Source: Clostridia bacterium (GTDB lineage: Bacteria; Bacillota; Clostridia; Oscillospirales; CAG-272). From it: a stretch of 64,000 nucleotides of DNA. Position 1 is the stretch's first letter. The number at the start of each line of letters is the position of its first letter. Positions 3,514-18,876 of this stretch are shown here, in pieces. The DNA lies in NCBI GenBank assembly GCA_017456145.1, contig JAFTJZ010000085.1, positions 10,463 to 74,462 of the forward strand, in the 5' to 3' direction. Below the pieces are notes generated by a model that did no database searches, was not told the origin of the DNA, and worked only from the letters and a program-made list of their open reading frames with translations. The position numbers and the translations under genes were made by a program.

Positions 3514-3570
3514 AAACAATCCTTTCATTTATGTATCATAATTTTCAACATCATTTATTCACATCCGCGC

Positions 3571-5373
3571 TCATTGTGCGGGAGTGTTCTTGGAATTTTT
3601 CACGGCTTTTCTTGCCAGAATGTCGGCAATGCTGGAGAGCACGTCCTCACTCGCCCGCCCGTCCGATCTCGCCTTGGCATCCTTGAGCGCCGCGGCACTC
3701 TGGCGGAACACCTCGGGGCCGTTGCGGCTCAACGCCCGCCTTTGCTGCTCCATCTGCTGCAGCCGCCCCATTTCCTCGGGACTAAAGTTCTGTCCGAGCA
3801 GAGCGTGGGCATACCCCGTGGGAGCCTTCTGCAGCTCCATAATGGCGGTAAAGGCGCGTTTCCCGAAGGCGGTGAAGAAATCATCCTCACATAGAGCAAC
3901 CTCTCCCGAGAGCACGGAGGAGCGATATTCATCAAATATCATCAGCAGCCCCAGCACGACGCTCTCTGCGCTTGATGCCTGCACGTTTTTGATGGTATCG
4001 GGGTTGATACGATCCCCCACACCGCGAATATCCGCCTGTGCGCGGCGGCTTTGCGCCTCTCGGCTCTCCTTGATCCGCTTGCGGAGCAGCTGATCGACCC
4101 GCCCCTTGAGCACGTCGGTGGAAAGATTGAGTCGCTGAGAGATCTGTCCGATATAGACCTCGCGCTCCACCCCCGAATTATATTCGCTGATCAGCTGGCA
4201 GCACTCTCCCGATGCAGCAATACGCCCCTCGGGGGTCTCAATATCATATTTTGCGAGGATCTGCTCGGATTTATACGCAAATCCCGTACGGCTGACCGAG
4301 AGCAGGCGTCTGAATTTATCCGCGCCGTAGAGCTTGATATATTCGTCCGGATCCTTGGCACCGTTCATCTGGAGCACGCGGACATCAATGCCCACCTCAC
4401 CCAGCTGTTGCATGGCGCGATTGGCGGCTCGTTGCCCCGCCTCGTCACTGTCGTAAGAAATGATGACTTTTTTGGTATACTTTGCAAAAATCCGTGCTTG
4501 CTCTGCCGTAATCGCCGTACCAAGCGTGGCAACGGCATTTTCAAAGCCTGCGGCGTGCAAAGCGATGACGTCCATATACCCCTCGCAAAGAATCATAAAT
4601 TCCTCACAATGATTTCTCGCGTAATTGAGCGCGAACAAATTGCGGCTCTTTTTGAAGGCAGGGGTATCGGAGGAGTTGAGGTATTTCGGCTTGGAATCGT
4701 CCATCACGCGTCCGCCGAAGGCGATGATATTGCCCGAGGTGTCGATGATGGGAAACATGACGCGGTTACGAAAATAATCGTACGCCCGCCCCGTTTTCTG
4801 ACTTTTCCCGCACAAAAAGGCGGTGATCAGCTCCTCATCGGTATATCCGAGCTTATGCATATAGTCGGTCAGCATACCGAAGGTGGCGGGAGCATAGCCC
4901 AGCCCGAAATGCTTGATGGTGGCACCGCTGAGCCGCCGTTGCTCGGATAGGTAGCGCATAGCCTCCCCACCGATGGCAGGGTCAAACAAGCATTGACGGA
5001 AGAACTTGGCGGCGGCAAGGTTCATCTCACAGACGCGGCGGCGGGTCAGCTCGTTTTTCCGGCCGGGGCCGCTCCCCTTGCCGTCCTGCGGAATATCAAT
5101 CCCTGCGCGGGCAGCCAGAAACTCCACCGCGCCGATATAGTCCAAATGCTCTGCCCGTTCAATAAAGGTGATCACGTCTCCCCCCGCACTGCAGCCAAAG
5201 CAATAAAAGCTCTGTGTGTTGGGGAATACGGTAAACGACGGGCTTTTCTCACTGTGGAAGGGGCAAAGTCCGTTCAGATTTGACCCTGCGCGCTTGAGCG
5301 TCACATACGAGCCGATCACCTGCTCGATCTCGCTGCGAGCCACGATATCCTCGATCACTTCTCTTGGGATCAT
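3571..5373 (-). CDS. dnaG: DNA primase
   Basis: CHC2 zinc-finger motif CPFHSEKSPSFTV...FYCFGC. TOPRIM motifs LCEGYMDVIAL and SYDSDEAGQRA. GGAGG lies about 6 nt upstream of the ATG. Confidence 0.95.
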   Translation of the reverse strand: MIPREVIEDIVARSEIEQVIGSYVTLKRAGSNLNGLCPFHSEKSPSFTVFPNTQSFYCFGCSAGGDVITFIERAEHLDYIGAVEFLAARAGIDIPQDGKGSGPGRKNELTRRRVCEMNLAAAKFFRQCLFDPAIGGEAMRYLSEQRRLSGATIKHFGLGYAPATFGMLTDYMHKLGYTDEELITAFLCGKSQKTGRAYDYFRNRVMFPIIDTSGNIIAFGGRVMDDSKPKYLNSSDTPAFKKSRNLFALNYARNHCEEFMILCEGYMDVIALHAAGFENAVATLGTAITAEQARIFAKYTKKVIISYDSDEAGQRAANRAMQQLGEVGIDVRVLQMNGAKDPDEYIKLYGADKFRRLLSVSRTGFAYKSEQILAKYDIETPEGRIAASGECCQLISEYNSGVEREVYIGQISQRLNLSTDVLKGRVDQLLRKRIKESREAQSRRAQADIRGVGDRINPDTIKNVQASSAESVVLGLLMIFDEYRSSVLSGEVALCEDDFFTAFGKRAFTAIMELQKAPTGYAHALLGQNFSPEEMGRLQQMEQQRRALSRNGPEVFRQSAAALKDAKARSDGRASEDVLSSIADILARKAVKNSKNTPAQ

Positions 5374-5430
5374 ATGCTCCCTCCTCTCTTCAACTTTTTC
5401 ACGTATTTTGATGTAAAAGGCGTTTCCCTC

Positions 5431-6444
5431 TCAATTTCCGATCCCACGCCAGACATTAGGAACGTAGAGTGCGCGATAGGTCTCAATGGCATAACGATCG
5501 GTCATACCCGAGAGAAAATCGCAAACGCAGCGTTCGACAGACTCCTCCTCCATATTCTTCCGATACAGGGCGGGCATCGCGTCGGGATGCTTGACATAGT
5601 GCTCAAACAGGCGGATCAGCAGCTCCTCGGATTTTTTCTCCTCACCCTTGGCAACAGGATTTTTATAAACCCGTTCGAATAGAAAATCTCGCAGCTGCAT
5701 GGTCGCATCCATGATGTGCGGCTCCATGGAAATGGCACTTTTGTCGGTGCTCGCGCGAATGATCGAGGTAACCATGGTGTTGATGCGCTCTCCATGCGAG
5801 TGCCCCAGCACCTCCCGCAAGCTTTCAGGAATATCGTCCGAGCGCAAAATCCCCGCACGGCAGGCGTCGTCAATGTCGTGATTGATGTAGGCAATGCGGT
5901 CGGCAAATTTGACCAGCACGCCCTCAAGCGTCGCTGCCATGCACTCGCCCGTGTGGTTGAGAATGCCGTCGCGCACCTCCCACGTCAGATTGAGTCCCTT
6001 GCCTCCCCGCTCCAGCTTTTCCACCACGCGCAAGCTTTGCTTGTAGTGGGCAAATTCGGGATCAAAGCACCGACGCATGGCAACCTCTCCCGCATGACCG
6101 AAGGGAGTATGCCCGAGATCGTGTCCAAGACCGATCGCCTCGGTCAGATCCTCATTGAGATGCAGCGCCCTTGCCAGCGTTCGTGCGATCTGGGTGACCT
6201 CCAGCGTGTGCGTCAGGCGGGTACGATAATGATCACCCACGGGGGCAAGGAAGACCTGCGTCTTGTTCATCAATCGGCGAAACGATTGACAATGAATGAT
6301 GCGGTCGCGGTCGCGCTGATACTCGGTGCGGATATCCCCCACCTCCAGCGGATCTTCGCGTCCGCGGCAATCGGCATTTTTCGCCGCATAGGGCGACAAA
6401 TAGCTATCCGCATGGCGGGCGTAATCGGCATACGACATCTCCAT
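5431..6444 (-). CDS. dgt: dGTP triphosphohydrolase-like HD-domain phosphohydrolase
   Basis: HD motifs TRLTHTLEVTQIAR and GLGHDLGHTPFGH. GGAGGAGG ribosome-binding site. It sits at the typical position upstream of dnaG. Confidence 0.85.
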   Translation of the reverse strand: MEMSYADYARHADSYLSPYAAKNADCRGREDPLEVGDIRTEYQRDRDRIIHCQSFRRLMNKTQVFLAPVGDHYRTRLTHTLEVTQIARTLARALHLNEDLTEAIGLGHDLGHTPFGHAGEVAMRRCFDPEFAHYKQSLRVVEKLERGGKGLNLTWEVRDGILNHTGECMAATLEGVLVKFADRIAYINHDIDDACRAGILRSDDIPESLREVLGHSHGERINTMVTSIIRASTDKSAISMEPHIMDATMQLRDFLFERVYKNPVAKGEEKKSEELLIRLFEHYVKHPDAMPALYRKNMEEESVERCVCDFLSGMTDRYAIETYRALYVPNVWRGIGN

Positions 6445-6570
6445 GAGCGTCCTCCTCCCGTATAGGTGTCCGCGCGCTTCGCATCATAACGGCGACGGCG
6501 TGCGGACACGGAGCATCGATCTTCACTTACTGTATATAATATACGCAAAAATTTTGAATTTTACTTTTTT

Positions 6571-6670
6571 TGCGACAATATTTTTTTGACTTTTCTGCGC
6601 GAAATTTGCGACCGACCGCGCCCACACATCCCATATTTCAACACAAACCGCGCCCACTTTCTGTTATACT
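6571..6670 (+). promoter_or_regulatory. Candidate spoIIG-type promoter region with Spo0A-box-like elements
   Basis: TATACT (6665-6670) lies 30 nt before the spoIIGA ATG. A weak -35-like TTCAAC (6637-6642) sits at an unusual 22-nt spacing. Two sites, at 6571-6577 and 6607-6613, read TGTCGCA and GGTCGCA on the minus strand, against the 0A-box consensus TGTCGAA. Confidence 0.3.
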
Positions 6671-6700
6671 GAGAGTACAACGAACAAAAGGGGGGGCGTC

Positions 6701-7594
6701 ATGGAGATCGAGGTCTACGGTGATCTGCTGTTTTTGGTCAATTTCAGCATGGACTTTCTCACGCTGTATCTGTGTGCACGACTGAGCGCACGTCCGCTGA
6801 GGCTGTGGCGGTCGTTGCTCTCCGCCGCATTGGGAGCGCTTTACGCGCTGGCTATTCTATTTCTCCCCGCAAAGCTGCCCACACTCCTCGGAATCGTTGC
6901 GGATGCTCTTGTCTGCATGCTGCTTTGCGCTGTCGGCCTCTATCAAAGGGGCGAGAGTCTGCGGGTGCTTTGGCGGCTGGGGGCGATCTACATACTGATC
7001 AGTGCATTGCTCGGCGGCATCATGACGGTGTTGTCCTCCGCGCTCAATCGCGTGGTCAGCCAAGATGCACTGCGCGCCGCACAGGGGGAGCAGGATGTAA
7101 GCTTTGCACTTTTTTCGGTGCTCGCGCCGCTTACCGCAGGACTTTGCTTGATTTTATGTCGGGCACATCGCCGCGCAGCAGCGAGAAGGACGGTTCTTCT
7201 GCATATCGTTCAGGGAGATCGGCAGTGCACCCTCAACGCACTGTGCGACAGCGGCAATCTGCTGCGCGATCCGATCAGCGCCCGCCCCGTCATCCCCGTG
7301 GATCTGGATGCGGCAGCGGCTTGTCTCCCCGCGCCGCTGACCGCCGCGCTGCGTGATGCGCACCCCATCGCCCGCACCGCCGCCCTCCCCGACACGCTGA
7401 TGCTGCGCACTCGTCTCATCCCCGCCAAAGGCGCGACAGGGGAGCAGATGCTGCTTGCCTATCAGGCAGATCACGTCTATCTGGACACAGGCAAGGGCGG
7501 GCGACGGGAGATCGTCGCCTACATTGCGCCCGTGCCTCTTCCCGACAAAAGCGAATACACCGCCATCCTCCCTGCCGAGCTGCTGACTCGCTGA
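6701..7594 (+). CDS. spoIIGA: Sigma-E processing aspartic peptidase SpoIIGA
   Basis: Multi-TM N-terminus VYGDLLFLVNFSMDFLTLYL. C-terminal motif LCDSGNLLRDPISARPV (DSGN active site). It lies directly upstream of sigE. Confidence 0.9.
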   Translation: MEIEVYGDLLFLVNFSMDFLTLYLCARLSARPLRLWRSLLSAALGALYALAILFLPAKLPTLLGIVADALVCMLLCAVGLYQRGESLRVLWRLGAIYILISALLGGIMTVLSSALNRVVSQDALRAAQGEQDVSFALFSVLAPLTAGLCLILCRAHRRAAARRTVLLHIVQGDRQCTLNALCDSGNLLRDPISARPVIPVDLDAAAACLPAPLTAALRDAHPIARTAALPDTLMLRTRLIPAKGATGEQMLLAYQADHVYLDTGKGGRREIVAYIAPVPLPDKSEYTAILPAELLTR

Positions 7595-7629
7595 CATCCG
7601 AACGATCAACCAACGAAAGGAAAAGAATC

Positions 7630-8346
7630 ATGAACCATTTCAAAGCCCGTCTCCGCGCTCTGTATCTGTCTGTTTGCCGTCTGCTTTACGGGCGGCGCAA
7701 GCAAGAGATTTTTTACATCAACGGTCCCGACACACTCCCCTCGCCGCTGTCTGCCGAGGAGGAAAAGGAGGCCATCGACCGTCTGCCGGACGACCCCTGT
7801 GCGCACGATCTTCTGGTGGAGCACAATCTGCGTCTGGTCGTCTTTATTGCCAAGCGGTTTGAAAACACGGGGGTCGGCATCGAGGATCTGATCTCCATCG
7901 GCACGGTGGGACTGATCAAAGCGATCAACACCTTCCGCACCGATAAAAATATCAAGCTGGCGACCTACGCCTCCCGCTGCATCGAAAACGAAATTTTGAT
8001 GTACATACGAAAAAACAGCGCCCTGCGCGGACAGCTGAGCATCGACGAGCCGCTGGGGGCTGACAAGGAGGGGGGCGAGCTGTATCTTTCGGATATTCTG
8101 AGCAGTGACGAGCAGGACATCGCCTCCGAGCTTGCCGAGCAGGAGGAACGGCAGGCCATTCGCGCGTGCGTGGACCGTCTGGACGACCGCGAGCGTCTGA
8201 TCATCGAGCTGCGATACGGGCTGCGAGACAACCGCGAGTTGACCCAGAAGGAGGTCGCCGACCTGCTCGGCATCTCCCAATCCTACATTTCGCGTCTGGA
8301 GAAAAAGATCCTGGCGCGAATGAAGGGGGAGTTGGAGAAATTATAA
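7630..8346 (+). CDS. sigE: Sporulation sigma factor SigE (pro-sigma-E)
   Basis: N-terminal pro-sequence followed by FYINGPDTLPSPLSAEEE. Region 2 HNLRLVVFIAKRF. Region 4.2 TQKEVADLLGISQSYISRLEKKIL. Confidence 0.93.
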   Translation: MNHFKARLRALYLSVCRLLYGRRKQEIFYINGPDTLPSPLSAEEEKEAIDRLPDDPCAHDLLVEHNLRLVVFIAKRFENTGVGIEDLISIGTVGLIKAINTFRTDKNIKLATYASRCIENEILMYIRKNSALRGQLSIDEPLGADKEGGELYLSDILSSDEQDIASELAEQEERQAIRACVDRLDDRERLIIELRYGLRDNRELTQKEVADLLGISQSYISRLEKKILARMKGELEKL

Positions 8347-8353
8347 AGCAATT

Positions 8354-8412
8354 GGGGCTGCGTCATTCGCGCAGCCCCGGCGTACAAAAAGCACCACCAC
8401 GGGTGCTTTTTT
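8354..8412. terminator. Bidirectional intrinsic terminator between sigE and the convergent MFS gene
   Basis: Hairpin GGGGCTGCG/CGCAGCCCC (8354-8378), then GCACC-ACCAC-GGGTGC followed by TTTTTT (8391-8412) and preceded by an A-run. Confidence 0.6.
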
Positions 8413-8414
8413 GT

Positions 8415-9707
8415 TTATTTCGCTATGATCGGCTTTTTCTCCAACACGAGCTTGGAAAAAAGGATGGCGCCGATCAGAATGAGCGCGGAGATGGCGGAGA
8501 GCAGCTGCTGCCCGTACATGGTCATGCCGAACAGTTGATTGCCGTTTGCCTGCACCGCGTCCAAAATCAAGCCGCCGAGAATTGAGGCGCCAAAGCCGCA
8601 AAGCCCCGAGATGCTGTTCTTGATCGCCGATGCCTCAACGAAATATTTACTGTCCACATAGCTGTAGACGATATTCATCATATTCTGCGCCGTGCCCGCA
8701 TAGGAGACGTTGATCACCAGCGTGAATATGATGACCAACCACCACAAGTGTGGTGTGGTAAACATATTGATGACAAAGGCAATAAGCGCGATGATCATTC
8801 CCAGGCGAATCCCCTTCACATAGGACCTCTTATCGGCATAAGCGGCAAAGGGCTTGGTCAAAAGGAACCGCGCCAGGCACCCGGCAATATTGATCAACTG
8901 CACCGCACCGACCGAAAGCAGAAGATCCTTGGTCTTATAGACCCCCATAAAGCCCATAGTCATGTATGTAGACGCTTGGATCAGTGTGCCGAGGATCACG
9001 ACACAGACAAAGCTCTTGTTGGTCAAAAGCTGCTTGACCACCTGCCAAAACGGTGTTACCTGCGCACGGTCAACGCGCTCGTGCGTCTGATTCTTCATCA
9101 GCATCAGGCATATGAAATCTCCCAGATTGAAGACAAGCATCATGCAGGCGATAAACAGGAATCCGCCCGTCACGTTGCCCGCCTCGGTAAAGCTGTCGAC
9201 CGCGTGGCCGACGCCAAGGCTGACCACCGTACCGGCAAGCAGCGAGATCATTTCTTTGGTACCCGCAAAATTCGCGCGCCGATTGGGATTCACAAAGGAA
9301 TTTCCCCACTTGAAGATGACCGAAACGACCAGATAATTACCGAAATAGCCGAACAGCACGCAAGCGATCACGGCGACCGTCCGCAGCTGCGCGGGAATAG
9401 GCAAAAACGGCAGAAGATACAAAAGCAGGAAAAACATCTGCCCGATGCAGTGGATCAGAATCGCGACCTTTTTGACGTTGGTAATGCGCTGTGCCACGAA
9501 AATGGCAGCAAGCTGAAACAAAAACGCCAGTGCGATCAGTGAGGAGATAATGCCGATGACCGCGTCCGGGATCTGCATATGCGAGAGCAGATTGGCAAGA
9601 AACGCATCGGCGACCATCAGTGCAACGAAATATTCAAACGCACATTCCAACGTATATGCCCACCGCGAGCGAGAGTAGTCGGGGGAGCGGAAGATCTGAT
9701 CGTTCAT
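8415..9707 (-). CDS. MFS-type transporter (GPH-like)
   Basis: A 430-aa polytopic hydrophobic protein with about 12 predicted helices by eye. No specific substrate motif recognised. Confidence 0.7.
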   Translation of the reverse strand: MNDQIFRSPDYSRSRWAYTLECAFEYFVALMVADAFLANLLSHMQIPDAVIGIISSLIALAFLFQLAAIFVAQRITNVKKVAILIHCIGQMFFLLLYLLPFLPIPAQLRTVAVIACVLFGYFGNYLVVSVIFKWGNSFVNPNRRANFAGTKEMISLLAGTVVSLGVGHAVDSFTEAGNVTGGFLFIACMMLVFNLGDFICLMLMKNQTHERVDRAQVTPFWQVVKQLLTNKSFVCVVILGTLIQASTYMTMGFMGVYKTKDLLLSVGAVQLINIAGCLARFLLTKPFAAYADKRSYVKGIRLGMIIALIAFVINMFTTPHLWWLVIIFTLVINVSYAGTAQNMMNIVYSYVDSKYFVEASAIKNSISGLCGFGASILGGLILDAVQANGNQLFGMTMYGQQLLSAISALILIGAILFSKLVLEKKPIIAK

Positions 9708-9817
9708 ATCATTTATTCCTTTCCGAAAGGTGATAAACTATTGAACATTGTATCACTCCGCGCAAGTTTTGTCAATGGTTGTTGTGAACAAAAACAGAAA
9801 AAAGTGAAACTGTAATT

Positions 9818-10381
9818 TCAGCAGCATTCCTGACGCACAAGCATGGGTGGCGACACGCCAAGGCACCGTGCCGCATCCTGTGCCGAGTGAACCCACGCGT
9901 CGGTCATCTCCCCCGTCAGCACCAGAGGCATACGATGATGCACGGGGAGAACGGATGCGTTGGCATCGGTGGTGAGAATGACAAAGCGCAGCCCTTCGTT
10001 CGTATGAGTCCAAAGCCCCGCAAGGCAAAACATGGGAGCGTCCGGCAGCCCGAAACGATACTTCACCTTCTGTCTCGACCACTCAAAATATCCCGTCGTC
10101 GGAACCAGACAGCGGCGATGGTAAAAGGCATCGCGAAAGCTGACCTTCTCCTGCACGCTCTCGGCGCGGGCGTTGATGATGACCCCCTTGCCGTCGTATT
10201 TTGGAAAGCCCCATGTCCCCGGCACGGGCGTCTTATCTCTCCCGCACAGCAGCGGCACCGTCTCGGTCGGATAGATTTCGCCCGACTTCAGTTGCACCTC
10301 GGGATAGCTCATGCGCAGCTCACGGTAAAGAGCCCGCATATCAATACTCGTATCTTCTTCGGCTGTGTAGCGTCCGCACAT
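9818..10381 (-). CDS. SOS-response-associated peptidase (SRAP/YedK/HMCES family) abasic-site processing protein
   Basis: N-terminal MCGRY (catalytic Cys2), TGYFEW, and HHRMPLVL motifs. Confidence 0.9.
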   Translation of the reverse strand: MCGRYTAEEDTSIDMRALYRELRMSYPEVQLKSGEIYPTETVPLLCGRDKTPVPGTWGFPKYDGKGVIINARAESVQEKVSFRDAFYHRRCLVPTTGYFEWSRQKVKYRFGLPDAPMFCLAGLWTHTNEGLRFVILTTDANASVLPVHHRMPLVLTGEMTDAWVHSAQDAARCLGVSPPMLVRQECC

Positions 10382-10574
10382 ATCAGGTCTCCTTCCTTCG
10401 TTAAGTTAATGTTGCGCACACGCAATCATTTTTTCTGCAATATTCTTGTATGATTCTCCATATGCGCTTTATAAAAATTGATTTTTTATCAACATGGGAT
10501 CAATGTTCATTCCTTGTGTGACAGCACAATTATAAACCTTTACGTAATGTTCAAGTCAATAGGTTTTTGAAAAA

Positions 10575-11081
10575 TTATTTCAAGAATTTTGAATTATGCT
10601 CCAAGCCGTGAAATTCATATCCCCGCTCTCGCAATGAATCGATCTTGAGCGCGACAAGATTGACGTCGGAGTGGAGCGCGTGGGCGGTCTGCGCCGCGTC
10701 GTACCGATATTGATAGATGCACTCCAGCACGTCCTCATCGGGCAACAGAATGGCCGCGGCAACCATGTTCGCCTCATATTCCATGCGGCTTGCCATGTTG
10801 TAGAGCATGATCTCGGACAGCCCGCTGTCCTTCGCCGCGTCACGGTGGAGACGATCGTGCCCGATCTCGTGCGCACAGACGATCCGCGCCGTGCTCTCGT
10901 CCAGATGCTTGTTGAGAAACAGACATCTGCGGCGATGGATGACGCGATACATCCCCTTCAGGCGCTTGAAATCCTCACGATAGACGCAGATCCCAAGCCC
11001 CTGCGCAATGACAAACGGATCACGCGTACCAAATCTGCGGACCAGACGCATCCCGATCTCATCATATTTCGTTTGTTTCAT
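10575..11081 (-). CDS. ImmA/IrrE-family (COG2856, M78) zinc metallopeptidase
   Basis: HEIGH zinc motif (CAHEIGHDRLH). 168 aa. It lies 16 nt downstream of the XRE repressor gene on the same strand. Confidence 0.85.
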   Translation of the reverse strand: MKQTKYDEIGMRLVRRFGTRDPFVIAQGLGICVYREDFKRLKGMYRVIHRRRCLFLNKHLDESTARIVCAHEIGHDRLHRDAAKDSGLSEIMLYNMASRMEYEANMVAAAILLPDEDVLECIYQYRYDAAQTAHALHSDVNLVALKIDSLRERGYEFHGLEHNSKFLK

Positions 11082-11096
11082 GAAACTCCGCGATCC

Positions 11097-11513
11097 TCAC
11101 TTGTTGTCGCGCGGCTTTTTGGGCGCGTATTTTTTGTTTTCCTCCTTGGCGTCCCAGTAAGCACGGTTGAGCGCTGCCATAATAGCATCCTTCTCATCCT
11201 CATCCAGCTCACCGCCCGCGAACAGCCCGCGGATCTCGCCGACCAGCGCCTCCACGTCCCTCGCCGCAGATGCGCCGCCGCGCTCATACGCATTGACCAC
11301 GTGTACCCCCTCACTGCCCAGCAGATATTCGGTCGTCGTGCCCAGCGCATCCGCCATTTTCTGTACGACCTCCATATGCTGCGGCTTTCGGCTGCCCAGC
11401 TCGTAATTCTGTACCGTGCGCAGCGTTACGCCGATCGCTGTCGCAAGTGCGCTCTGGCTCATCCCCGCCGCCGCGCGCCTTTCCTTTAGTCTGTCCTTAA
11501 ATTCCATATTCAT
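11097..11513 (-). CDS. XRE-family HTH repressor (ImmR-like)
   Basis: HTH_3 motif MSQSALATAIGVTLRTVQNYELG. It is paired with the ImmA-type protease and divergent from dinB. Confidence 0.85.
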   Translation of the reverse strand: MNMEFKDRLKERRAAAGMSQSALATAIGVTLRTVQNYELGSRKPQHMEVVQKMADALGTTTEYLLGSEGVHVVNAYERGGASAARDVEALVGEIRGLFAGGELDEDEKDAIMAALNRAYWDAKEENKKYAPKKPRDNK

Positions 11514-11625
11514 ACCTCCGTGTTCTCAAAGCTCTCCGAACAGCTTATTGATCTAACGCCCCTGCATCAAAGAACAGCGAGCTCTGCTTGCCATATGTAA
11601 GGCTTTCGTACACCTTTCACATTTA

Positions 11626-11639
11626 CGAACATATTTTCG
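11626..11639. promoter_or_regulatory. LexA/DinR-type SOS box candidate 1
   Basis: CGAACATATTTTCG matches the Firmicute consensus CGAACATATGTTCG at 13 of 14 positions. It ends 10 nt upstream of the -35 element. Confidence 0.5.
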
Positions 11640-11648
11640 CAAAACCAC

Positions 11649-11677
11649 TTGACAACGCAATTGTGTTCGTGTATAAT
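11649..11677 (+). promoter_or_regulatory. Consensus sigma-A promoter of dinB
   Basis: TTGACA (11649-11654), an exact 17-nt spacer, then TATAAT (11672-11677), about 90 nt upstream of the dinB ATG. Confidence 0.65.
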
Positions 11678-11685
11678 ATAAAGCA

Positions 11686-11699
11686 CGAAACATCGTTCG
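11686..11699. promoter_or_regulatory. LexA/DinR-type SOS box candidate 2
   Basis: CGAAACATCGTTCG (core GAAA-N4-GTTC, 7 of 8 positions) lies immediately downstream of the -10 element, near the expected +1. A weaker third site, CGAACAGCTTTGTC, is at 11718-11731. Confidence 0.45.
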
Positions 11700-11768
11700 T
11701 ATATATCATACCACATACGAACAGCTTTGTCAAGTCCCCGCCGTTAAAATATGTAAAAAAAGGAGTCG

Positions 11769-13004
11769 ATGCGTGTGAACCGTACCATTTTACATTGTGA
11801 CATGAACAACTTTTACGCCTCGGTAGAGTGCCATCTCAACCCCGCGCTCGCCCCGCACCCCATCGCCGTCTGTGGCGAGACCGAGGAGAGGCACGGCATC
11901 GTACTGGCAAAAAATTATCTTGCCAAGGATTACGGTGTGCGTACGGGAGAGGCCGTCTGGCAGGCAAAGCAAAAATGCCCCTCCCTTCTGATCGTGCCGC
12001 CCCACTATGAGGAATACGTCAAGGTTTCCCGCGCCGCACGGCAGATCTACTACGATTATACCGACACCATCGAGCCGATGGGGCTGGACGAATGTTGGCT
12101 GGACGTCACGGGCAGCCGCCGTTTCTTCGGAGAAGGAGAGACGCTCGCCCATACCATCCGTACTCGGATCAAAAGTGAGCTGGGAGTGACGGTCTCGATA
12201 GGAGTCTCCTTCAACAAGGTGTTTGCCAAGCTCGGCAGCGATCTCAAAAAGCCCGATGCCGTCACCGTCATCACCGCCGAAGACTTTCGGGCAAGAATTT
12301 GGAACCTCCCCGCCTCGGAAATGCTGGGCGTGGGATCTGCCACGGCAAAAAAGCTGCACGCCGTCGGGATCCACACCATCGGCGATCTTGCCCACTATCC
12401 CCGCGACTGCTTGCGCTATAAGCTGGGCAAGTGCGGGGACGATCTGTGGCGCTACGCCAACGGACTTGACACCTCTGCGGTCGTCACGCGGGAGATCGAG
12501 GATCTGGACAAGACGGCGGGACACGGCATCACAACGCGGGAGGATCTGGTCTCGGACGATGAGGTCTGGCGGGTCATGCTCTCGCTTGCCCAGAACGTCG
12601 GGCATCGGCTGCACGTCTACCAAAAGAAAGCCACCGGCGTCGCCATCGACGTACGGGACAACGCGCTCTTCTCCCGCATCTGGCAGTGTAAGCTCGCCTA
12701 CCCGACGCAAAGCGCCTTCCGCATCGCCGACACCTGCTTTTCCCTGTTTCAAAAAAGCTACGGCTGGGCGCGCCCCATCCGTTCACTGACTGTCCGTGCC
12801 ATCGGCCTGGTCGCGGAAAATCTTCCTTACCAATTCGACCTTTTTCATAACGCGGACAGCATCGAAAAGGAAGAGACCCTCGACCGTACCATCGAGCAGC
12901 TGCGGGAGCGATACGGCAGCAGCATCATCCGCAACGCCGTGCTTTTGCACAATCCCAAGATGCCGCGAAGCGACGTTCTGCTGCGCCATACCGCGACCAA
13001 ATAG
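11769..13004 (+). CDS. dinB: Y-family DNA polymerase IV
   Basis: Motifs LHCDMNNFYASVE, GLDECWLDVT and SIGVSFNKVFAKLGSDLKKPD. A GTG at 11775 is an alternative start. Confidence 0.92.
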   Translation: MRVNRTILHCDMNNFYASVECHLNPALAPHPIAVCGETEERHGIVLAKNYLAKDYGVRTGEAVWQAKQKCPSLLIVPPHYEEYVKVSRAARQIYYDYTDTIEPMGLDECWLDVTGSRRFFGEGETLAHTIRTRIKSELGVTVSIGVSFNKVFAKLGSDLKKPDAVTVITAEDFRARIWNLPASEMLGVGSATAKKLHAVGIHTIGDLAHYPRDCLRYKLGKCGDDLWRYANGLDTSAVVTREIEDLDKTAGHGITTREDLVSDDEVWRVMLSLAQNVGHRLHVYQKKATGVAIDVRDNALFSRIWQCKLAYPTQSAFRIADTCFSLFQKSYGWARPIRSLTVRAIGLVAENLPYQFDLFHNADSIEKEETLDRTIEQLRERYGSSIIRNAVLLHNPKMPRSDVLLRHTATK

Positions 13005-13030
13005 CCGTCCAAAACTCAACAACAGATTGT

Positions 13031-13059
13031 TTGATTTTAGTGAGGTAATATGATATAAT
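13031..13059 (+). promoter_or_regulatory. Putative extended -10 sigma-A promoter for the small XRE gene
   Basis: TTGATT (13031-13036), a 17-nt spacer ending in TGa, then TATAAT (13054-13059). Confidence 0.5.
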
Positions 13060-13136
13060 GATTTTGGTTTCCGTAAAAACAACAAATTCAGCAAAAAATT
13101 TCATGTTCGAGACAATCGGAAGGGGGAGAGCACCAT

Positions 13137-13370
13137 ATGAACCTGGACGCCATCGGTAAAAACATCGCCACCATACGAAAGGCAAATCACCTGACCCAGG
13201 TCGAGCTGGCATCGCGCCTGAACGTCACCCCACAGGCAGTGAGCAAATGGGAAAACGGCGTCAATCTTCCCGAGACCTCATTGCTGGTCGCACTGTCGCA
13301 GCTATTTCAGGTCACCATCGATGAGCTGCTGATGAACGATCCGTATAAAGGCAACAGGATCGACGGATAA
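13137..13370 (+). CDS. Small XRE-family HTH transcriptional regulator
   Basis: 77 aa. HTH_3 motif LTQVELASRLNVTPQAVSKWENG. GGGGGAG ribosome-binding site upstream. Confidence 0.85.
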   Translation: MNLDAIGKNIATIRKANHLTQVELASRLNVTPQAVSKWENGVNLPETSLLVALSQLFQVTIDELLMNDPYKGNRIDG

Positions 13371-13459
13371 AACGAAGAAACAATCCGCCGCGCGTGTCGG
13401 CCGGACGCAGGAGCGGTTGTTTATAAAACAGAAATAATGAAATGAGAGGAAATTTTATC

Positions 13460-13684
13460 ATGGCAGAAATGAAAAAAGTAAGAGTTTGCAAGCGTTGCTC
13501 GGGATTTGACGTCGCCGAGCTCAAGGGAAAGGTCAAGGTCAAGGACACCTCGACGGGCTGCATCGGCAAGTGCGCGAGAAATTGCCCCGAGCTTGCGGGA
13601 AAGGTCTACGGTTATCTTGACGGCGAGTTCGTCGTCTGTGATACCAAGGAGGAATTTTTTGAGAAGATTGCACAGATTGTCTGA
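13460..13684 (+). CDS. Small Cys-rich protein, DUF1450 (YuzB)-like
   Basis: 74 aa counted from MAEMKK, with GAGGAA upstream. The Cys pattern C-x2-C ... GC-x3-C-x3-C and the tail LDGEFVVCDTKEEFFEKI resemble YuzB-type proteins. The family assignment rests on memory only. Confidence 0.45.
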   Translation: MAEMKKVRVCKRCSGFDVAELKGKVKVKDTSTGCIGKCARNCPELAGKVYGYLDGEFVVCDTKEEFFEKIAQIV

Positions 13685-13699
13685 ATAAGGAGATCGAGG

Positions 13700-14785
13700 A
13701 TGAAAAAACTTAAACATGTCCCGTTTCCTATCGGAGCGGAATCCAACGGCTTTATTGCCGCACTGTCCAGCGCCGTCCTGCCTTGTTTAGGAATCACTGA
13801 AGATGCACCTTACTGGTGTGCACCTAAAGGCAGTTATTGCATCCACTGCAGCGACTGCAACACATTGCAAAAGCATCAGGAAATGCTTTATCACACTCTG
13901 CTGGCAGCAAGCGGATTGGCATTCACCTTTGATTATCCCGAAGACGATGATGTAGGGTTCCATACTTTGCCAAACGCGCCCATCGGTTGGCGCTGGGACG
14001 AGCCGTTCGTGGAAAATCTCATGGACTTCGCGGGACTGTCTTACAAACGGTTCACTAATAAATCCGTGACAGAAATGTACGAAATCATCCGACAGACCAT
14101 CGACGCAGGATATACCGCCATTTGCGCTGATACGCATAACATTTCCGAGAATATGGCGTGGTCTCGCTGCTGGAATGTGGTCATCGGATATACAGAGGAC
14201 GGCATCTGCACCATGCGACACGGTGGAGAGATCATCACCGAAAGCGATCGTACATACAGCGATTGGATCGTAATCACCGGCAAAACAGAGAGACGGCAGA
14301 CATATCGAGATGTACTGGAGCGGATTTATACTACGCTTACCGATCCCTCCCACGATGCACTTGAGCAGGAAATTAACAATGATCTTTCCCATATTACACC
14401 GGAAAATGCAGTCGGATTATCATACAAAATGATGGGTATCAACGGTGTTCCCATTGAAACTCGCTGGCACGCGGCGGAGGCATTCTGCTCATCGAATAAT
14501 CTATTATCTTCTTTGACAAACGACGACACCGTAAAGAGTAAATTGTGCGATCTATTCTTTGATCGATATATCGCCAATAATAATAACGAAACCCACGGTA
14601 TCGGCTGGAAGATATGGGGGGCGCTGCACGTCGGTCCTTCGACCGGATACATGCCTACAGATGAATCCTTTGCGCTGATACAGCAGCCACAGGTGCAGGA
14701 GGAACTGAAACGGTTATTTAAGATCGTATTCGACAATGACCGCGCGGTGGCAGCCGGAATATACGATATTTTGAAAACAATGTGA
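13700..14785 (+). CDS. Island family A1: uncharacterised protein, possibly BtrH_N/DUF4872-like (papain-fold)
   Basis: 361 aa with AAGGAGA upstream. It is a paralogue of 16777-17823, sharing the core I.xG...I...W..V[VI]IGY.ED. It has an A1-specific Cys cluster, C-x6-C-x2-C-x2-C. The function call is tentative. Confidence 0.4.
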   Translation: MKKLKHVPFPIGAESNGFIAALSSAVLPCLGITEDAPYWCAPKGSYCIHCSDCNTLQKHQEMLYHTLLAASGLAFTFDYPEDDDVGFHTLPNAPIGWRWDEPFVENLMDFAGLSYKRFTNKSVTEMYEIIRQTIDAGYTAICADTHNISENMAWSRCWNVVIGYTEDGICTMRHGGEIITESDRTYSDWIVITGKTERRQTYRDVLERIYTTLTDPSHDALEQEINNDLSHITPENAVGLSYKMMGINGVPIETRWHAAEAFCSSNNLLSSLTNDDTVKSKLCDLFFDRYIANNNNETHGIGWKIWGALHVGPSTGYMPTDESFALIQQPQVQEELKRLFKIVFDNDRAVAAGIYDILKTM

Positions 14786-14944
14786 AATCACCATTCTACA
14801 ATTGACAAATAAAATATCTGCAAATTGCAATAGCAAGTTGCAACAAAAAATAACCGCAAGGAATAATAAACCATGAACAAATCAATAGCAGAGAGCTTTG
14901 AATCAGTAAAACAATCCGATACGAATTTGGAAAAGGAGAATAAT

Positions 14945-15457
14945 ATGAAAGAATTTCAATGTGAATCATTTGAATATGTTAATACCGGCAAGTTACGATT
15001 TATAGGTATTGATGCATACTGTAAGTGCGATGATTGGAACGCTCATTGGGAACGCTCGTTGGAGCTTTTGCCTCAACTTGAAGCAATGCTCGACGAATAC
15101 GGAGCATTTGTTACTTATCCCAGCGCACTTATACATTCCGGCGGCAAAGAGGTCGGGATTGAGGAACATTTTTTGGCAGGTTATTTCTTCAAGCAAGGTA
15201 CACCCGTTCCGGAAGGATATGATTATTTCGATATTGATGCAGAAGTACTCGGATACGGCATTTATACTACAGATGATTTCCCCGGTGATATGGAATCGGT
15301 ATATGTCATGGCACGCGATAAGATATTGAATGATGGCTTTTTGATTCCGTATCCTCAAGGATATTGTCACGCGGAAATATACACCGACGGACGTGATTTT
15401 GAGGGTGCGTTGCGTATCGGGTATATGTTTCCGACGAACAGGGAAAGTAATATATGA
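14945..15457 (+). CDS. Island family B1: GyrI-like / AraC-effector-binding-type small-molecule-binding protein
   Basis: Start placed at MKEFQCE, with AAGGAGA upstream. It is a paralogue of 19521-20102 (RFIGID, GYFFK..TPVPEG, GYGIY, RDKIL.DG..PYP.GY). Its stop overlaps the C1 start (ATGA). Confidence 0.55.
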   Translation: MKEFQCESFEYVNTGKLRFIGIDAYCKCDDWNAHWERSLELLPQLEAMLDEYGAFVTYPSALIHSGGKEVGIEEHFLAGYFFKQGTPVPEGYDYFDIDAEVLGYGIYTTDDFPGDMESVYVMARDKILNDGFLIPYPQGYCHAEIYTDGRDFEGALRIGYMFPTNRESNI

Positions 15458-16638
15458 TTTTTGAAAAAAATGTTACTGAATTTTCCACCATGCTTCACCG
15501 GGATATTTATATGAGGGCGCTTCGACTTGTCCCGCCGGAGATATCTTTGGCAGAAATCGAAAAAGAAACTCCTGAAATGGCTGAAAGCGGACGGGAATTT
15601 TATCATTTCATGCTGGAACTGTACAGCGATATGTTTTGTAATCCCGAAATCTATGGCATGACGCCCGGGGCATATGAAGATATGGCACAGCATCGTAAGT
15701 GGAATTATATGCGTTTGCGTGTGAAAAACGTCGATGACTATTTTTGCTTATCCGAAACTCAAATTGCATCATATGTGCGTTTCATACATGAAATGGCATT
15801 ATTCTGTCATATTTCAGAGGGTTGCTGTTATCTGACATATGATGTTTTTGAAAAAGCGAAAGATCTGAAACGAGTCACACCTGTTAACAAGCAGAAGTTA
15901 TTGCTTCCGATCCAAATGGTTATGAAAAATCTGGAACGAGTAGGATTGGAGCTACAAGATGATGGTGAAAAAATTCAAGTTATATGTGAAAAATATCCCG
16001 ATATGTTTTTGGCTGCCTCTGCACTTAGAAAAACAGTAGAAGATACCATTCAAAACCCCGTATCCAAAAAGCTGAAATACTACTTTGGTGAATATATGGA
16101 TACCCTGGATTTTCGATTGCTGAAAGAGCCTTATTATCCTGATTTTGAGGATCACATACGTCATCTTTCCGATAAAGACCGCGAGGCGGTAATAACATTA
16201 GATGCACTGGCAAAAGAATACAAATGTAAATCTGATTATAAAAATTGTCTTGAATATAAGTACAAAGGCAAATATGTCATGAGTGTTTGGACACACGGAC
16301 TCTACCACGAGCCAACTCGCCAACACGATACCTGGCGTCGATACGTACGGTGTCGTGTGGCGGGAACGGTGAATTCGTCTTATCTTGAACAGGTGGAGAT
16401 AGAAGGGGACGATTTCAAACAATATTTTATGCGGCATTTGAATCGGTGCAGCGGATGTACCCCTGCTCATTTGAACAGTCAAAATGCGATTAAGAAGATT
16501 TTCGGAAGAAGTGTTCGTTTTTGTTCTATCAATATCGCCACTGAAATCGCCGGGCTTACCATAAACGATCTCCCGTATATCAGAAAGTTTATAGAAATGA
16601 GAATAAGGGAAATTGAAGGAGAGAAAAATTATGCATAA
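15454..16638 (+). CDS. Island family C1: hypothetical protein (no family recognised)
   Basis: 394 aa. It is a paralogue of 17854-18876 (LVP.EISL, [FL]YHF, KYP[DH]M, and the C-terminal motif HL..C..CTP...IFG....FC...DL..I...IE.R). Confidence 0.6.
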   Translation: MIFEKNVTEFSTMLHRDIYMRALRLVPPEISLAEIEKETPEMAESGREFYHFMLELYSDMFCNPEIYGMTPGAYEDMAQHRKWNYMRLRVKNVDDYFCLSETQIASYVRFIHEMALFCHISEGCCYLTYDVFEKAKDLKRVTPVNKQKLLLPIQMVMKNLERVGLELQDDGEKIQVICEKYPDMFLAASALRKTVEDTIQNPVSKKLKYYFGEYMDTLDFRLLKEPYYPDFEDHIRHLSDKDREAVITLDALAKEYKCKSDYKNCLEYKYKGKYVMSVWTHGLYHEPTRQHDTWRRYVRCRVAGTVNSSYLEQVEIEGDDFKQYFMRHLNRCSGCTPAHLNSQNAIKKIFGRSVRFCSINIATEIAGLTINDLPYIRKFIEMRIREIEGEKNYA

Positions 16639-16776
16639 ATGCCACAACCATTTCAAGCCATTTCCCATCGAGAATTGTGGGGATGTCAACTACACGTTAA
16701 TTGACGGCTGCTGATATTTATATTTCAACAAACAAATTTTATATTTTAGCAAACAAATATTGTACGGAGGACAAAC

Positions 16777-17823
16777 ATGAAAAAACAATTACAATATAAC
16801 TCGCCGTTTTGGATTTGGGGCGGCTTGGGCTTTTATAACTGCTATGCTTCGGTTTATATGCATATACAAAAGGAAAACGGATGTGCCGTGGCATCGGATC
16901 GACCGGAGGATTTTGTCGAAAATTTGAACAATTTGTTTGAAACCATGGCAGGTCAAACGCTGATGCGCTCTTCATGGTCAAAGGAACCCACAATCATGGA
17001 AAAGGAATTGGCTCTTCGGTTTGGAAATGGCAGCAATGCCACGGATGAGCTGGTGGATTTTATTGTGGGTTTCACCGGTTATGAATATAAAAAAATCACC
17101 GCTGACTTCAAGCAAACAGTGATGGATTCTATTAACACCGGCAAGCCGTTGATTGCCAAGCTGAAATCTGACGATTGGCAGTCGGGTCTGGGCAAGGGAT
17201 ATCGAGTGATTATCGGGTATGACGAGGATGCTTTGCTGGAACCGAGCTATGTTTTTGAGTCGAACACCACCCCGGCCAAAGCGGTCACTTATGATCAGAT
17301 AGAATGGCTCTATTTGTTTGGCGATAAAATCGCTCAAAAATATACCATGCTGGATGTTCTGAAACAGATGGAAGAAATTATGAACAGTGATTTTTCCCAA
17401 GGAATCTGGGTGGATTTTGCCTATCACTTCGATTTTGAACACGGGGATTGGGGCGAGAAGGTAGCGCAGGTAAAACAGCGGTTTGCACGTCTGGAAGATA
17501 TGGGCTGGGATCTTTCCTGCATGAGCCATTCTCTGCAAAACGCCACCGGCGACCGCGAGCTGCTGCAATCCTTGGGATTGGATGTAGAGCAGCACGATGA
17601 ATTGATTGACACTTTGGGTGAGCAAACCCACTTGCTGCATAATTTAGGATATCAGGCGAACGCCTTGAGAGAATCCGTCTTTGCATTTCAACTGAATGAC
17701 GAGCAGGAGTGGCCTTGGAATTTGAACGGTCTGATCACCTCGACGGCAATGATCTTTGACGCAGTGATGGAATGTGAAATGAAAATTTTATTGGCGATCA
17801 AAAAAGCCATTCGGAAATTTTAA
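16777..17823 (+). CDS. Island family A2: uncharacterised protein, paralogue of A1
   Basis: 348 aa with GGAGGA upstream. N-terminal GFYNCYASVYMHI plus the core GYRVIIGYDED. The C-terminal half is helical by eye. Confidence 0.4.
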   Translation: MKKQLQYNSPFWIWGGLGFYNCYASVYMHIQKENGCAVASDRPEDFVENLNNLFETMAGQTLMRSSWSKEPTIMEKELALRFGNGSNATDELVDFIVGFTGYEYKKITADFKQTVMDSINTGKPLIAKLKSDDWQSGLGKGYRVIIGYDEDALLEPSYVFESNTTPAKAVTYDQIEWLYLFGDKIAQKYTMLDVLKQMEEIMNSDFSQGIWVDFAYHFDFEHGDWGEKVAQVKQRFARLEDMGWDLSCMSHSLQNATGDRELLQSLGLDVEQHDELIDTLGEQTHLLHNLGYQANALRESVFAFQLNDEQEWPWNLNGLITSTAMIFDAVMECEMKILLAIKKAIRKF

Positions 17824-17853
17824 GAGAGACCATTGAAAAGGTGAAATACCGCT

Positions 17854-18876
17854 ATGATTGATAGAAACAAGCCCGATTATCAAACACCCACGCAGAAAGA
17901 AATCTGGAATGCAGCAACCAATCTTGTGCCACTCGAAATTTCTCTACCTGCGATCCCGATGGAATATCATCAATCCTGCCGTGATTTATATCACTTTTTT
18001 ACAGATATTCTGGAGGATATGTATATACATCCTGACCCTTATATGGCTCTGGGCGATGTACAGACCTATATTCGTTGGTTTTGGGTATTTCTTTATAAAG
18101 CATATGATTTTGAGGGTGGCGCATTTATCACGCCGATTGACAAACACAAGAAATTTGTTAAAAAAATGGGCGCGCCGCTATTGGATTTTCTGACAACCCG
18201 ATGGGGACTTCAAATCAAAAAGACAGATACGGAAGTGCGCATCTCCAACACAAAATATCCCCATATGCTGTCAGCGGTCTATAACACCTTGCAGGCTGCT
18301 TACAAAAATTATAACGTAAATTGCGGCGATTATCTGACCTTCTGCGATTTTCGCGCGTTGGTAAACTACAAACGAACCTACCATGATATGCTCGAACTTT
18401 TGAACCGCGAAGGACAAGCCATAGCGGAAAGCATATGTGAATTTGCACTGGCTCGTGGGATCAAGCCGGTCAAGTGTACGTATTTCAATCGCGTGGAATT
18501 TAAGAAAAAGGGAAAGATCGTCTTTATTCTGGACGTAGCAGAAGGTAAAAACCTCAAGATCAACATCGGATTTGCGGAGCTTGGCGGACAGGCGTTCCGA
18601 CGGATGTCGGACGCGATTGATGCTTATACGGACAAGGAGATATTTGTTCGTTACTTACGTAACCATCTAAAAAAATGCACCAATTGCACACCCGGGTGTC
18701 AAAAGCGAGCAAATCCCGTAGAAATTTTTGGCTTAAAAACGATCTTTTGTCAACCGTTTTTACGAATGTTCCAACCGCCCAAGACGGATCTGCACCACAT
18801 ATTTCGCTTGATCGAGCTCCGTGAAATGGTTGTGGATGCAGGCATTTCCGAGATATTTTATCCGGGAAATGGATGA
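17854..18876 (+). CDS. Island family C2: hypothetical protein, paralogue of C1
   Basis: 340 aa. It shares the N-terminal and C-terminal motifs of C1, including HLKKCTNCTP...IFGLKTIFC. Confidence 0.6.
   Translation: MIDRNKPDYQTPTQKEIWNAATNLVPLEISLPAIPMEYHQSCRDLYHFFTDILEDMYIHPDPYMALGDVQTYIRWFWVFLYKAYDFEGGAFITPIDKHKKFVKKMGAPLLDFLTTRWGLQIKKTDTEVRISNTKYPHMLSAVYNTLQAAYKNYNVNCGDYLTFCDFRALVNYKRTYHDMLELLNREGQAIAESICEFALARGIKPVKCTYFNRVEFKKKGKIVFILDVAEGKNLKINIGFAELGGQAFRRMSDAIDAYTDKEIFVRYLRNHLKKCTNCTPGCQKRANPVEIFGLKTIFCQPFLRMFQPPKTDLHHIFRLIELREMVVDAGISEIFYPGNG

Follow-up and report, generated by a model that had tools for sequence, protein, structure and literature searches.

A putative XRE repressor/M78 protease switch facing dinB in a recurrent, accessory cassette of Clostridia

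Introduction

Mutation under stress, which includes the emergence of antibiotic resistance, is driven by error-prone polymerases, and little is known of how these are induced in the many gut Firmicutes that are without the LexA paradigm or depart from it. How one such polymerase may be governed is the question raised by a 64,000-nucleotide stretch of a Clostridia bacterium (GTDB lineage Bacillota; Clostridia; Oscillospirales; CAG-272; GenBank assembly GCA_017456145.1, contig JAFTJZ010000085.1, positions 10,463 to 74,462 of the forward strand), hereafter the window. Its minus strand carries the genes of an XRE-family repressor, an M78 metallopeptidase and an SRAP protein, and dinB, encoding a Y-family DNA polymerase, is transcribed divergently from them. 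An initial annotation had described these genes, together with a 193-bp gap ahead of the SRAP gene, as a repressor-protease pair of the ImmR/ImmA kind, possibly domesticated as a DNA-damage switch; in the present analysis all four open reading frames were recovered at the same coordinates, and the family matches agreed. We consider it probable, though well short of certain, that they make up a small translesion-synthesis module that regulates itself through an XRE/M78 switch and is exchanged horizontally.

Results

A shared control region with three predicted operators

The XRE gene and dinB are separated by a shared control region of 255 bp, in which two consensus promoters facing each other were recognized, together with three inverted repeats. 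The dinB promoter (P_dinB, plus strand, 11649-11677) consists of TTGACA at 11649-54, a 17-nt spacer and TATAAT at 11672-77, thus agreeing with the consensus at 12 of 12 positions, and has a predicted start at ~11684. Facing it, the promoter of the repressor gene (P_xre, minus strand, 11705-11733) points leftward toward XRE-M78(-SRAP) and scores 11 of 12, with TTGACA at 11733-28, a 17-nt spacer, and TATGAT at 11710-05 with a TG before this -10 box. The two -10 boxes are only 27 nt apart, so that the predicted transcripts overlap by ~14 nt. The three repeats, each a 16-bp inverted repeat, are placed at an exact spacing of 30 bp, and all three are predicted operators: O3 (ACGAACATATTTTCGC, 11625-11640) lies just upstream of the P_dinB -35 box, O2 (ACGCAATTGTGTTCGT, 11655-11670) is inside the P_dinB spacer, and O1 (ACGAAACATCGTTCGT, 11685-11700), a perfect match to ACGAA-N6-TTCGT, is between the -10 boxes and covers both predicted transcription starts.

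This region was compared across 24 dinB-linked intergenic regions, namely that of the window and those of 23 related loci (L numbers). The layout of promoters and three repeats was identical in all 23 of the other regions that could be extracted. The sequence of the repeats, on the other hand, differed between loci: it was ACGAAC..TTCGT in the window, L020-24, L028, L032 and L017; CACAC..GTGTG in L040, L046 and L050; ACGCAA..GGGTGT in L042, L047 and L049; TACGCA-N6-TGCGTA in L085 and L099; and GGTGAAAC..TTTCACC in L015. Repeats of the same locus resembled one another more than those of different loci did, the observed value being reached in none of 2000 permutations, and the residues of the recognition helix in the helix-turn-helix (HTH) domain varied together with the repeat type. 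Since locus-specific repeats at fixed positions co-vary with the recognition helix, they are most likely the operators of the cognate XRE protein.

In the genome as a whole (2.9 Mb), 64 operator-like sites were found against ~80 expected, and their sole cluster was the cassette; two other perfect operator matches both fell inside genes. A wider XRE regulon was thus rejected, as the genome scan gave no second operator cluster, and the uniqueness of this cluster indicates that the switch is local rather than a regulon.

Properties of the four cassette proteins

The XRE repressor (minus strand, 11097-11513; HTH_3, PF01381, E-value 1.5e-13) has an N-terminal HTH_3 domain, followed by a helical C-terminal domain. 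Its true start is probably the third codon, ATG 11507, which is favored by the homologs and by the spacing of the ribosome-binding site and would yield a protein of 136 amino acids. The C-terminal part contains an L-F-A-G-G motif, invariant in 55 homologs, and the domain as a whole bears the invariant signature LFAGG...YWDAK..NKKY. By sequence, the best solved relative was the N-domain of ICEBs1 ImmR (7t8i, E-value 3e-10), followed by CapH, and the best PADLOC profile was capH (E-value 2e-10). The AlphaFold2 model (predicted local distance difference test, pLDDT, 82) consists of the HTH domain, a long helix and a C-terminal helix; its best full-length fold match was DdrO (6jq1), and 7t8i gave a template modeling (TM) score of 0.87, normalized to the target. 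The LFAGG motif falls where the long helix ends, a stretch of lower model confidence.

Directly after XRE, with a gap of 15 bp, the minus strand encodes the M78 (COG2856) zinc metallopeptidase of the ImmA/CapP/IrrE type (10575-11081; E-value 7e-19), a protein of 168 amino acids without a GAF domain. It matched PF06114, the family formerly named DUF955. Its HEIGH motif starts at residue 71 and EYEAN at residue 101, so that the protein has the HEXXH and downstream Glu typical of COG2856/M78, and H71, E72, H75 and E101 were invariant in 48 homologs. The best PADLOC profile was capP (E-value 7.5e-12), and phrog_87, a metallo-protease family (E-value 7e-21), also matched. For the AlphaFold2 model (pLDDT 85) which stops after the helical middle domain, the best folds were PprI/IrrE (8sln, E-value 1e-5, TM 0.60; also 3dti) and CapP (7t5t); these alignments comprised only the protease and helical middle domains, i.e., ~155 residues of the 240-280-residue PprI/CapP chains.

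The final gene of the repressor-side transcription unit encodes SRAP, an abasic-site shielding protein of the YedK/HMCES type (minus strand, 9818-10381; PF02586, E-value 1e-36; 187 amino acids). The residues that define this class are intact, namely the N-terminal nucleophile Cys2 (start MCGRY), the conserved Glu and the His, with FEW at residue 99 and HHRMP at residue 148. The spacer between M78 and SRAP (10382-10574) is 193 bp long, compared to roughly 15-60 bp in relatives. When a consensus minus-strand promoter for SRAP was sought in this gap, none was found, the best candidate by eye having a spacer of 19 nt; transcription of SRAP probably continues from P_xre, or else starts at a weak promoter of its own. 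A PADLOC defense-system search of SRAP and the other cassette proteins returned only capH/capP-like and RmrA-like HTH or M78 matches.

On the other side of the control region, dinB (plus strand, 11769-13004) encodes a DNA polymerase IV of 411 amino acids with IMS, IMS_HHH and IMS_C domains (NF002848, E-value 3e-102; NF002677, 270.6 bits against a cut-off of 256). The catalytic carboxylates are kept, D11 in DMNNFYASVE (residue 11) and D107-E108 in DECWLD (residue 107). Against the closest relatives, the ratio of nonsynonymous to synonymous substitution rates was 0.07-0.30 across all four genes, and 0.12-0.30 for SRAP. All four cassette genes are therefore intact and under purifying selection.

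Recurrence of the gene arrangement

Loci were collected by scanning one genome per species with XRE only, in the form of a three-sequence alignment (A3), which retrieved at least 407 relatives of the repressor across Clostridia species genomes; 80 loci were kept. M78 was directly downstream of XRE in ~70 of these 80, several of the remainder being cut by contig ends. A divergent dinB, 47-77% identical to that of the window, was present just upstream of XRE in 22 loci, and SRAP directly after M78, within tens of bases, in 11. Two loci (L015, L017) carried the pair and dinB in the same arrangement in two other families of the order to which the window belongs. As the synteny recurs in loci that were fetched by XRE alone, the linkage of dinB to XRE-M78(-SRAP) is that of a recurrent unit and not a product of chance. 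On the XRE tree, whose branch support is weak, dinB linkage was strongly clustered (6-7 changes against ~17 expected), yet did not form one clade.

Several other genes accompany these loci. A family of 80-100 amino acids, which we call c6, directly follows dinB in many cassettes (L042 8380-8637, L044 3453-3692, L048 8275-8580, L050 6927-7172, L109 7302-7559, L017 604-870) and also occurs beside the pair in loci with a different Y-family polymerase. Its motif is KVYV..PR.I.W.DG..Y.IDRI...KVGG.GIRYTV.I.G...RWFVE; it had no Pfam or PHROG match, and the gene is absent from the genome of the window. The c6 protein may correspond to the ImuB-C-like stand-alone partner reported in 2013. In a nested group of XRE/M78 loci, a distant Y-family polymerase with IMS domains, 21-28% identical to the window's DinB, is encoded downstream of M78 on the same strand and not divergently upstream (L025 12104-13528, L033 2979-4295, L036 11031-12400, L089 2809-4155).

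Accessory status and genomic setting

The cassette is part of a strain-specific block of 11.9 kb (8347-20232), made up of a gene for a major facilitator superfamily (MFS) transporter, the cassette and an AT-rich island, which lies between sigE and an inverted yigZ-hflX. In all seven informative genomes of the same genus, sigE is directly followed by hflX, and the gene order is FkbM-spoIIGA-sigE-hflX-yigZ-(..)-dGTPase-dnaG-sigA. Relative to these seven, the window has its sigA-dnaG-dGTPase block and yigZ-hflX inverted and FkbM moved (1-8346, 20233-26664), and the cassette-bearing insertion therefore sits at a rearrangement breakpoint. The genes flanking the cassette are dnaG, dGTPase, spoIIGA, sigE and the MFS transporter on one side, and a small HTH gene, a block of AT-rich genes of no known family and yigZ-hflX on the other. 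The GC content is 40-45% between 14 and 20 kb of the window and 52-60% elsewhere. No tRNA gene was found in the window, and a search around the cassette and around the 11.9-kb block found neither att-like direct repeats nor shared flanks.

The same genome encodes a second Y-family polymerase (contig C23, 67304-68479), 33% identical to this DinB, and a close same-genus relative as judged by flanking-gene identity (G001) has only a Y-family copy of low identity (34%). Another genome of the genus (G011) carries the cassette elsewhere, by ABC-transporter genes (dinB 77%, XRE 83% identity), and DNA similarity to the closest relatives begins and ends at the four genes. Judging from this strain-specific insertion, the second polymerase and the relative with the cassette at another site, this dinB is an accessory second copy and the cassette is accessory as well.

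The small HTH gene downstream of dinB (plus strand, 13137-13370) encodes a stand-alone HTH_3 protein of 77 amino acids (E-value 1e-15), with a promoter-like site of its own at 13031-13059. In G011, a 43%-identical HTH_3 gene also follows dinB (L108 6567-6761), although the flanks differ, and in this sub-lineage the protein possibly belongs to the module. It may act with the switch as a Cro-like partner, or may instead regulate the neighboring AT-rich island. The latter (13442-20102), within the 11.9-kb insertion, consists of paralogous AT-rich open reading frames without a Pfam family and a GNAT gene. In a distant member of the Clostridiales whose XRE is 44% identical (L099 8502-19685), the cassette lies ~3.7 kb from yigZ-hflX-sigE-spoIIGA, the same neighborhood as in the window, which could be a coincidence or a preferred site.

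Mobile-element links and the origin of the switch

Integrase, excisionase, phage and conjugation genes were sought in the 11.9-kb block and the window, including by tblastn with recombinase sets, and none was found; the sole tblastn match was a tyrosine-integrase-like fragment at contig positions 23-883, beyond the edge of the window, with sigA, dnaG, spoIIGA and sigE between it and the cassette. Among 25 dinB-linked loci, three were within a few kilobases of recombinases, namely L032 and L048 (tandem serine recombinases) and L017 (a tyrosine integrase), whereas most copies had no mobile-element genes within 10 kb. When the 122 open reading frames flanking 22 dinB-linked loci were grouped, serine recombinases were the sole mobile-element families among the 25 most frequent ones (in L032 and L048, by their gene maps), the other frequent families being ordinary chromosomal genes. 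Where the cassette is carried on a recombinase-bearing element, dinB has another M78-like gene next to it that is longer (~245-280 amino acids, HExxH), and such a gene also occurs in some of the dinB-less loci; its positions are L032 7328-8173, L048 7547-8308, L035 8811-9572 and L017 3330-4064.

The dinB-less XRE/M78 relatives are regulatory modules of integrative elements, accompanied by Tn916-type Xis and integrase, large serine recombinases, sigma-region-4 proteins and MazF. Promoters that face each other as in the window were found in 30 of 30 distinct regions of these element-borne relatives, with an early operon toward Xis/integrase in the place of dinB. This sharing of the promoter design indicates that the switch derives from the immunity regions of such elements, dinB now occupying the slot of the early operon. 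The control of excision and transfer of an integrative element, as exerted by ImmR/ImmA, is thus a feature of the dinB-less relatives and not of the cassette in the window.

One further genome, G017 (L109, contig C26, 7302-9773), has an orthologous dinB operon (58% identity) with c6 on a serine-recombinase element, preceded by a LexA paralog of 205 amino acids with a winged helix-turn-helix and an S24 domain (115 bits). Because this repressor stands in the place of XRE and M78, the arrangement implies equivalent damage-responsive roles for the two kinds of regulator.

With respect to the initial annotation, its statement that no integrase, excisionase or phage structural gene lies nearby is borne out by the recombinase search over block and window. 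An attachment of the pair to an integrase or phage module in related genomes, which that annotation would have taken as the mark of a decayed element, is partly seen: L032, L048 and L017 have the cassette next to serine or tyrosine recombinases, and in the wider family the pair is element-borne, but most dinB-linked copies lack such genes.

The LexA question

Two of the three boxes in the window (CGAAC-N4-GTTCG-like) differ from the Firmicute LexA consensus at a single position, and a consensus promoter lies between them. Canonical LexA (winged helix plus S24) was therefore sought in the genome, and the best TIGR00498 match, 82 bits against a cut-off of 111, was to an S24 domain only; the sole S24 proteins of the genome have HTH_3 N-termini. 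None of 12 same-genus genomes had a LexA above the TIGR00498 cut-off, and other genera of the family do have it. LexA-type boxes were not enriched, three being found in the window where 2.6 were expected, with no enrichment in the genome either, and recA (C18:6415) has no LexA/Cheo-type box and no operator-like site. Nor is GAAC-N4-GTTC conserved as such, since 16 of 24 loci carry unrelated palindromes at the same positions. On these grounds, i.e., no canonical LexA, the palindromes of the sister loci and the boxless recA, the reading of the CGAAC motifs as LexA boxes was rejected for this genome.

Of 21 other genomes that harbor a dinB-linked cassette, 14 do encode LexA. Two loci from LexA-positive genomes, L085 and L099, have an extra CGAACATATTTTCG close to the ribosome-binding site of dinB. 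It lies ~30 nt from the dinB end of the intergenic region, outside the three-operator frame, and has the same sequence as the Cheo-like core of O3 in the window; this suggests an optional double control by LexA. Genomes with Cheo-like operators had LexA in two of eight cases, against 12 of 16 for the other types (Fisher p = 0.03, uncorrected for shared ancestry), which is only a hint that Cheo-like operators are associated with LexA-less genomes.

Two features around recA (C18:5950-12300) were recorded in addition. Just after its -10 box, recA carries a GTCACGC..GCGTGAC palindrome, and ~4.5 kb from it is the gene of an HTH_3+S24 protein of ~207 amino acids, whose upstream region also has face-to-face consensus promoters. 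All 12 same-genus genomes without canonical LexA have a similar protein of ~212 amino acids.

The initial annotation had suggested that the pair was domesticated to control dinB and SRAP, either in parallel with LexA or instead of it. The recurrent synteny, the three cognate operators over P_dinB and the usual presence of SRAP in the repressor operon do tie a pair of the ImmR/ImmA kind to dinB and SRAP functionally; it is nonetheless not a host regulator of a damage regulon, as its sites occur only at the cassette, the insertion is accessory and the polymerase is an extra one. As to LexA, 'instead of it' applies only insofar as no canonical LexA is detectable here; 14 of the 21 other cassette genomes possess LexA. 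The cassette of the window would thus work without LexA and is no replacement for it as a global regulator.

Discussion

A proposed mechanism

We infer XRE DNA binding, XRE cleavage and the nature of the signal by analogy with the known pairs. In the resting state, an XRE oligomer on O1-O3 would block P_dinB at its -35 box, spacer and start, and P_xre would be autoregulated at O1; dinB would thereby be tightly shut, and the xre-M78(-SRAP) operon would limit its own expression. Upon a damage signal, by analogy single-stranded DNA (ssDNA) or a RecA filament (RecA is encoded in the genome), M78 would become active and cut XRE in its C-terminal oligomerization region, where LFAGG holds a candidate site. 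F98-A99 of XRE may be regarded as a reasonable candidate, given the invariance of this motif and the Phe at P1 in both ImmR and CapH. ImmR is cut at F95|M96, and the DdrO site has a Leu, L106|R107. The CapH site, F82|R83, has Phe at P1 (10.1101/2022.04.27.489752). Cleavage would free both P_dinB and P_xre, so that DinB and SRAP would rise together with fresh repressor and protease, resetting the switch. Lastly, face-to-face promoters with overlapping starts should also be subject to mutual interference, and the response would be sharper as a result.

Competing explanations

Several points weigh against this mechanism or parts of it. Co-transcription of SRAP is uncertain here, given its separation by 193 bp. 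M78 lacks the GAF domain, which contributes the ssDNA groove of CapP/IrrE, and its sensing may therefore differ or need a partner. The joint variation of recognition helix and repeats has shared ancestry as a confounder. The LexA-like match of the operators means that an unrecognized LexA-like protein could also bind them, and the assembly, a draft with 95% completeness and 7.5% contamination, does not prove that this strain lacks LexA. The last two points bear on the view that the boxes are ordinary LexA (Cheo) boxes and dinB a classical SOS gene, with XRE/M78 a mere neighbor or a second lock. The near-consensus boxes around the promoter, the extra CGAACATATTTTCG near the ribosome-binding site in L085/L099 and the LexA genes of 14 of the 21 genomes speak for it; yet canonical LexA is missing here and in all 12 same-genus genomes, the S24 matches being HTH_3+S24 proteins, recA is boxless, boxes are enriched in neither window nor genome, and the sister loci hold non-LexA palindromes (CACAC..GTGTG, TACGCA..TGCGTA, GGTGAAAC..TTTCACC) at the same positions, all of which makes this the least probable of the explanations weighed here. 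It is also quite improbable, if a little less so, that the pair is the relic of a decayed integrative element, with dinB as cargo and a switch no longer functional for the host. Such a relic would fit the element-borne wider family with its Tn916-type Xis/integrase and serine recombinases, the dinB cassettes beside recombinases in L032, L048 and L017, and the strain-specific insertion of the window copy at a rearranged site. It would nevertheless leave the maintenance of three operators unexplained, and it is at odds with four genes under purifying selection behind two intact promoters, and with the recurrence of the four-gene unit in many genomes amid ordinary chromosomal genes without shared flanks.

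The most credible competitor, though still rather unlikely, accepts the switch as described and replaces the signal: it would respond not to DNA damage but, for example, to phage infection, to a peptide or partner protein like RapI, or to redox or zinc, or would act mainly as a toxin-antitoxin-like addiction module for the island. ImmA also responds to RapI, one report links IrrE to zinc and redox signaling (PMC7907104), a toxin-antitoxin-like nature was once proposed for COG2856/Xre pairs (PMC2701414), and the M78 protein here has no ssDNA-sensing GAF domain. Against this, the cargo consists of two DNA-damage-tolerance genes, an autoprotease of the LexA type replaces the pair in G017, and no toxin-like partner is found in the cassette. 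A more far-reaching version of the module, which we hold to be decidedly speculative, would have the cassettes be mutually 'heteroimmune', exchangeable mutagenesis modules, each with a repressor-operator specificity of its own, that provide gut Clostridia, including lineages that have lost LexA, with a private damage-inducible polymerase; the GAF-less M78 would sense damage by a new route, for example through SRAP that has bound abasic sites in ssDNA or become cross-linked to them, or through the RecA filament directly, and in the former case SRAP would be sensor and effector at once. Overall, a damage-responsive XRE/M78 switch over a portable dinB remains our preferred reading.

Significance

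A module of this kind would be the third cargo class for a repressor/M78-protease switch, after mobile-element induction and anti-phage defense, and the dinB cassette recurs in many gut Clostridia. Its movement between genomes and elements would mean that inducible mutagenesis can itself be acquired horizontally. The predicted control region is compact, comprising two promoters, three operators and several specificities, and is thus easily tested and a possible source of orthogonal damage-inducible switches.

Comparison with known systems

The ImmR/ImmA pair of ICEBs1 and the phi105 repressor/ImmA pair resemble the one described here in having an HTH_3 repressor and, in the same operon, a HEXXH protease of ~170 amino acids without GAF; the N-terminal domain of XRE is likewise of the Cro/C1 (HTH_3) type, and the pair faces the operon that it controls in ImmR/ImmA and is predicted to control here. 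They differ in what is controlled, which here would be a translesion polymerase instead of excision and transfer genes, no element genes being present, and in the C-terminal domain of XRE, with its own LFAGG...YWDAK..NKKY signature. Moreover, ICEBs1 has back-to-back PimmR and Pxis, whereas the promoters here are face-to-face.

Cassettes in which a mobile Y-family polymerase is carried with its own cleavable repressor of the LexA/HdiR kind, as in G017, are also alike in plan, but their S24 repressors cleave themselves under RecA stimulation, in contrast to a repressor and a separate protease of a different clan. Such cassettes include rumAB on SXT/R391, the UV-resistance operon of Tn5252 and streptococcal hdiR-umuC.

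DdrO/IrrE of Deinococcus provided the best folds for both proteins and is, as proposed here, a LexA-independent system in which a protease-cleaved XRE repressor presides over DNA-repair genes. However, DdrO governs a genome-wide regulon through ~20 dispersed sites, while the sites here cluster at the cassette only; IrrE has a GAF domain, and the Deinococcus genes belong to the chromosomal core and not to a portable cassette. CapH/CapP comes close in another respect, as the pair lies upstream of a non-mobile cargo operon encoded by the other strand, with the C-terminal domain of the repressor as the expected cleavage target (10.1101/2022.04.27.489752). The differences lie in the protease, CapP having ~290 amino acids and a GAF domain, with ssDNA bound in the inter-domain groove, against 168 amino acids here, and in the cargo, which here serves DNA-damage tolerance and not anti-phage immunity; the cargo listed in the CapH/CapP preprint is defense-related, with no polymerases mentioned (10.1101/2022.04.27.489752).

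That ImmA cleaves ImmR, IrrE cleaves DdrO and ssDNA-activated CapP cleaves CapH is established (PMC8072749; 10.1101/2022.04.27.489752), and gene neighborhoods of DUF955 metallopeptidases with DinB/ImuB-C were described by Aravind, Anand and Iyer in 2013 (PMC3765255). The link of metallopeptidase and DinB, and the three pairs as damage-responsive repressor/protease systems, are thus already known. The 2013 paper contains no repressor partner, operators, mechanism, mobility analysis or experiment, and such details were added here in silico; our literature search found no paper characterizing an XRE/M78 switch on dinB. What is new is the architecture of the control region, with its promoters, three spaced repeats and locus-specific repeat sequences. 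Taken together, the cassette is a new example of the known repressor/M78-protease switch, and no replacement for the general DNA-damage response.

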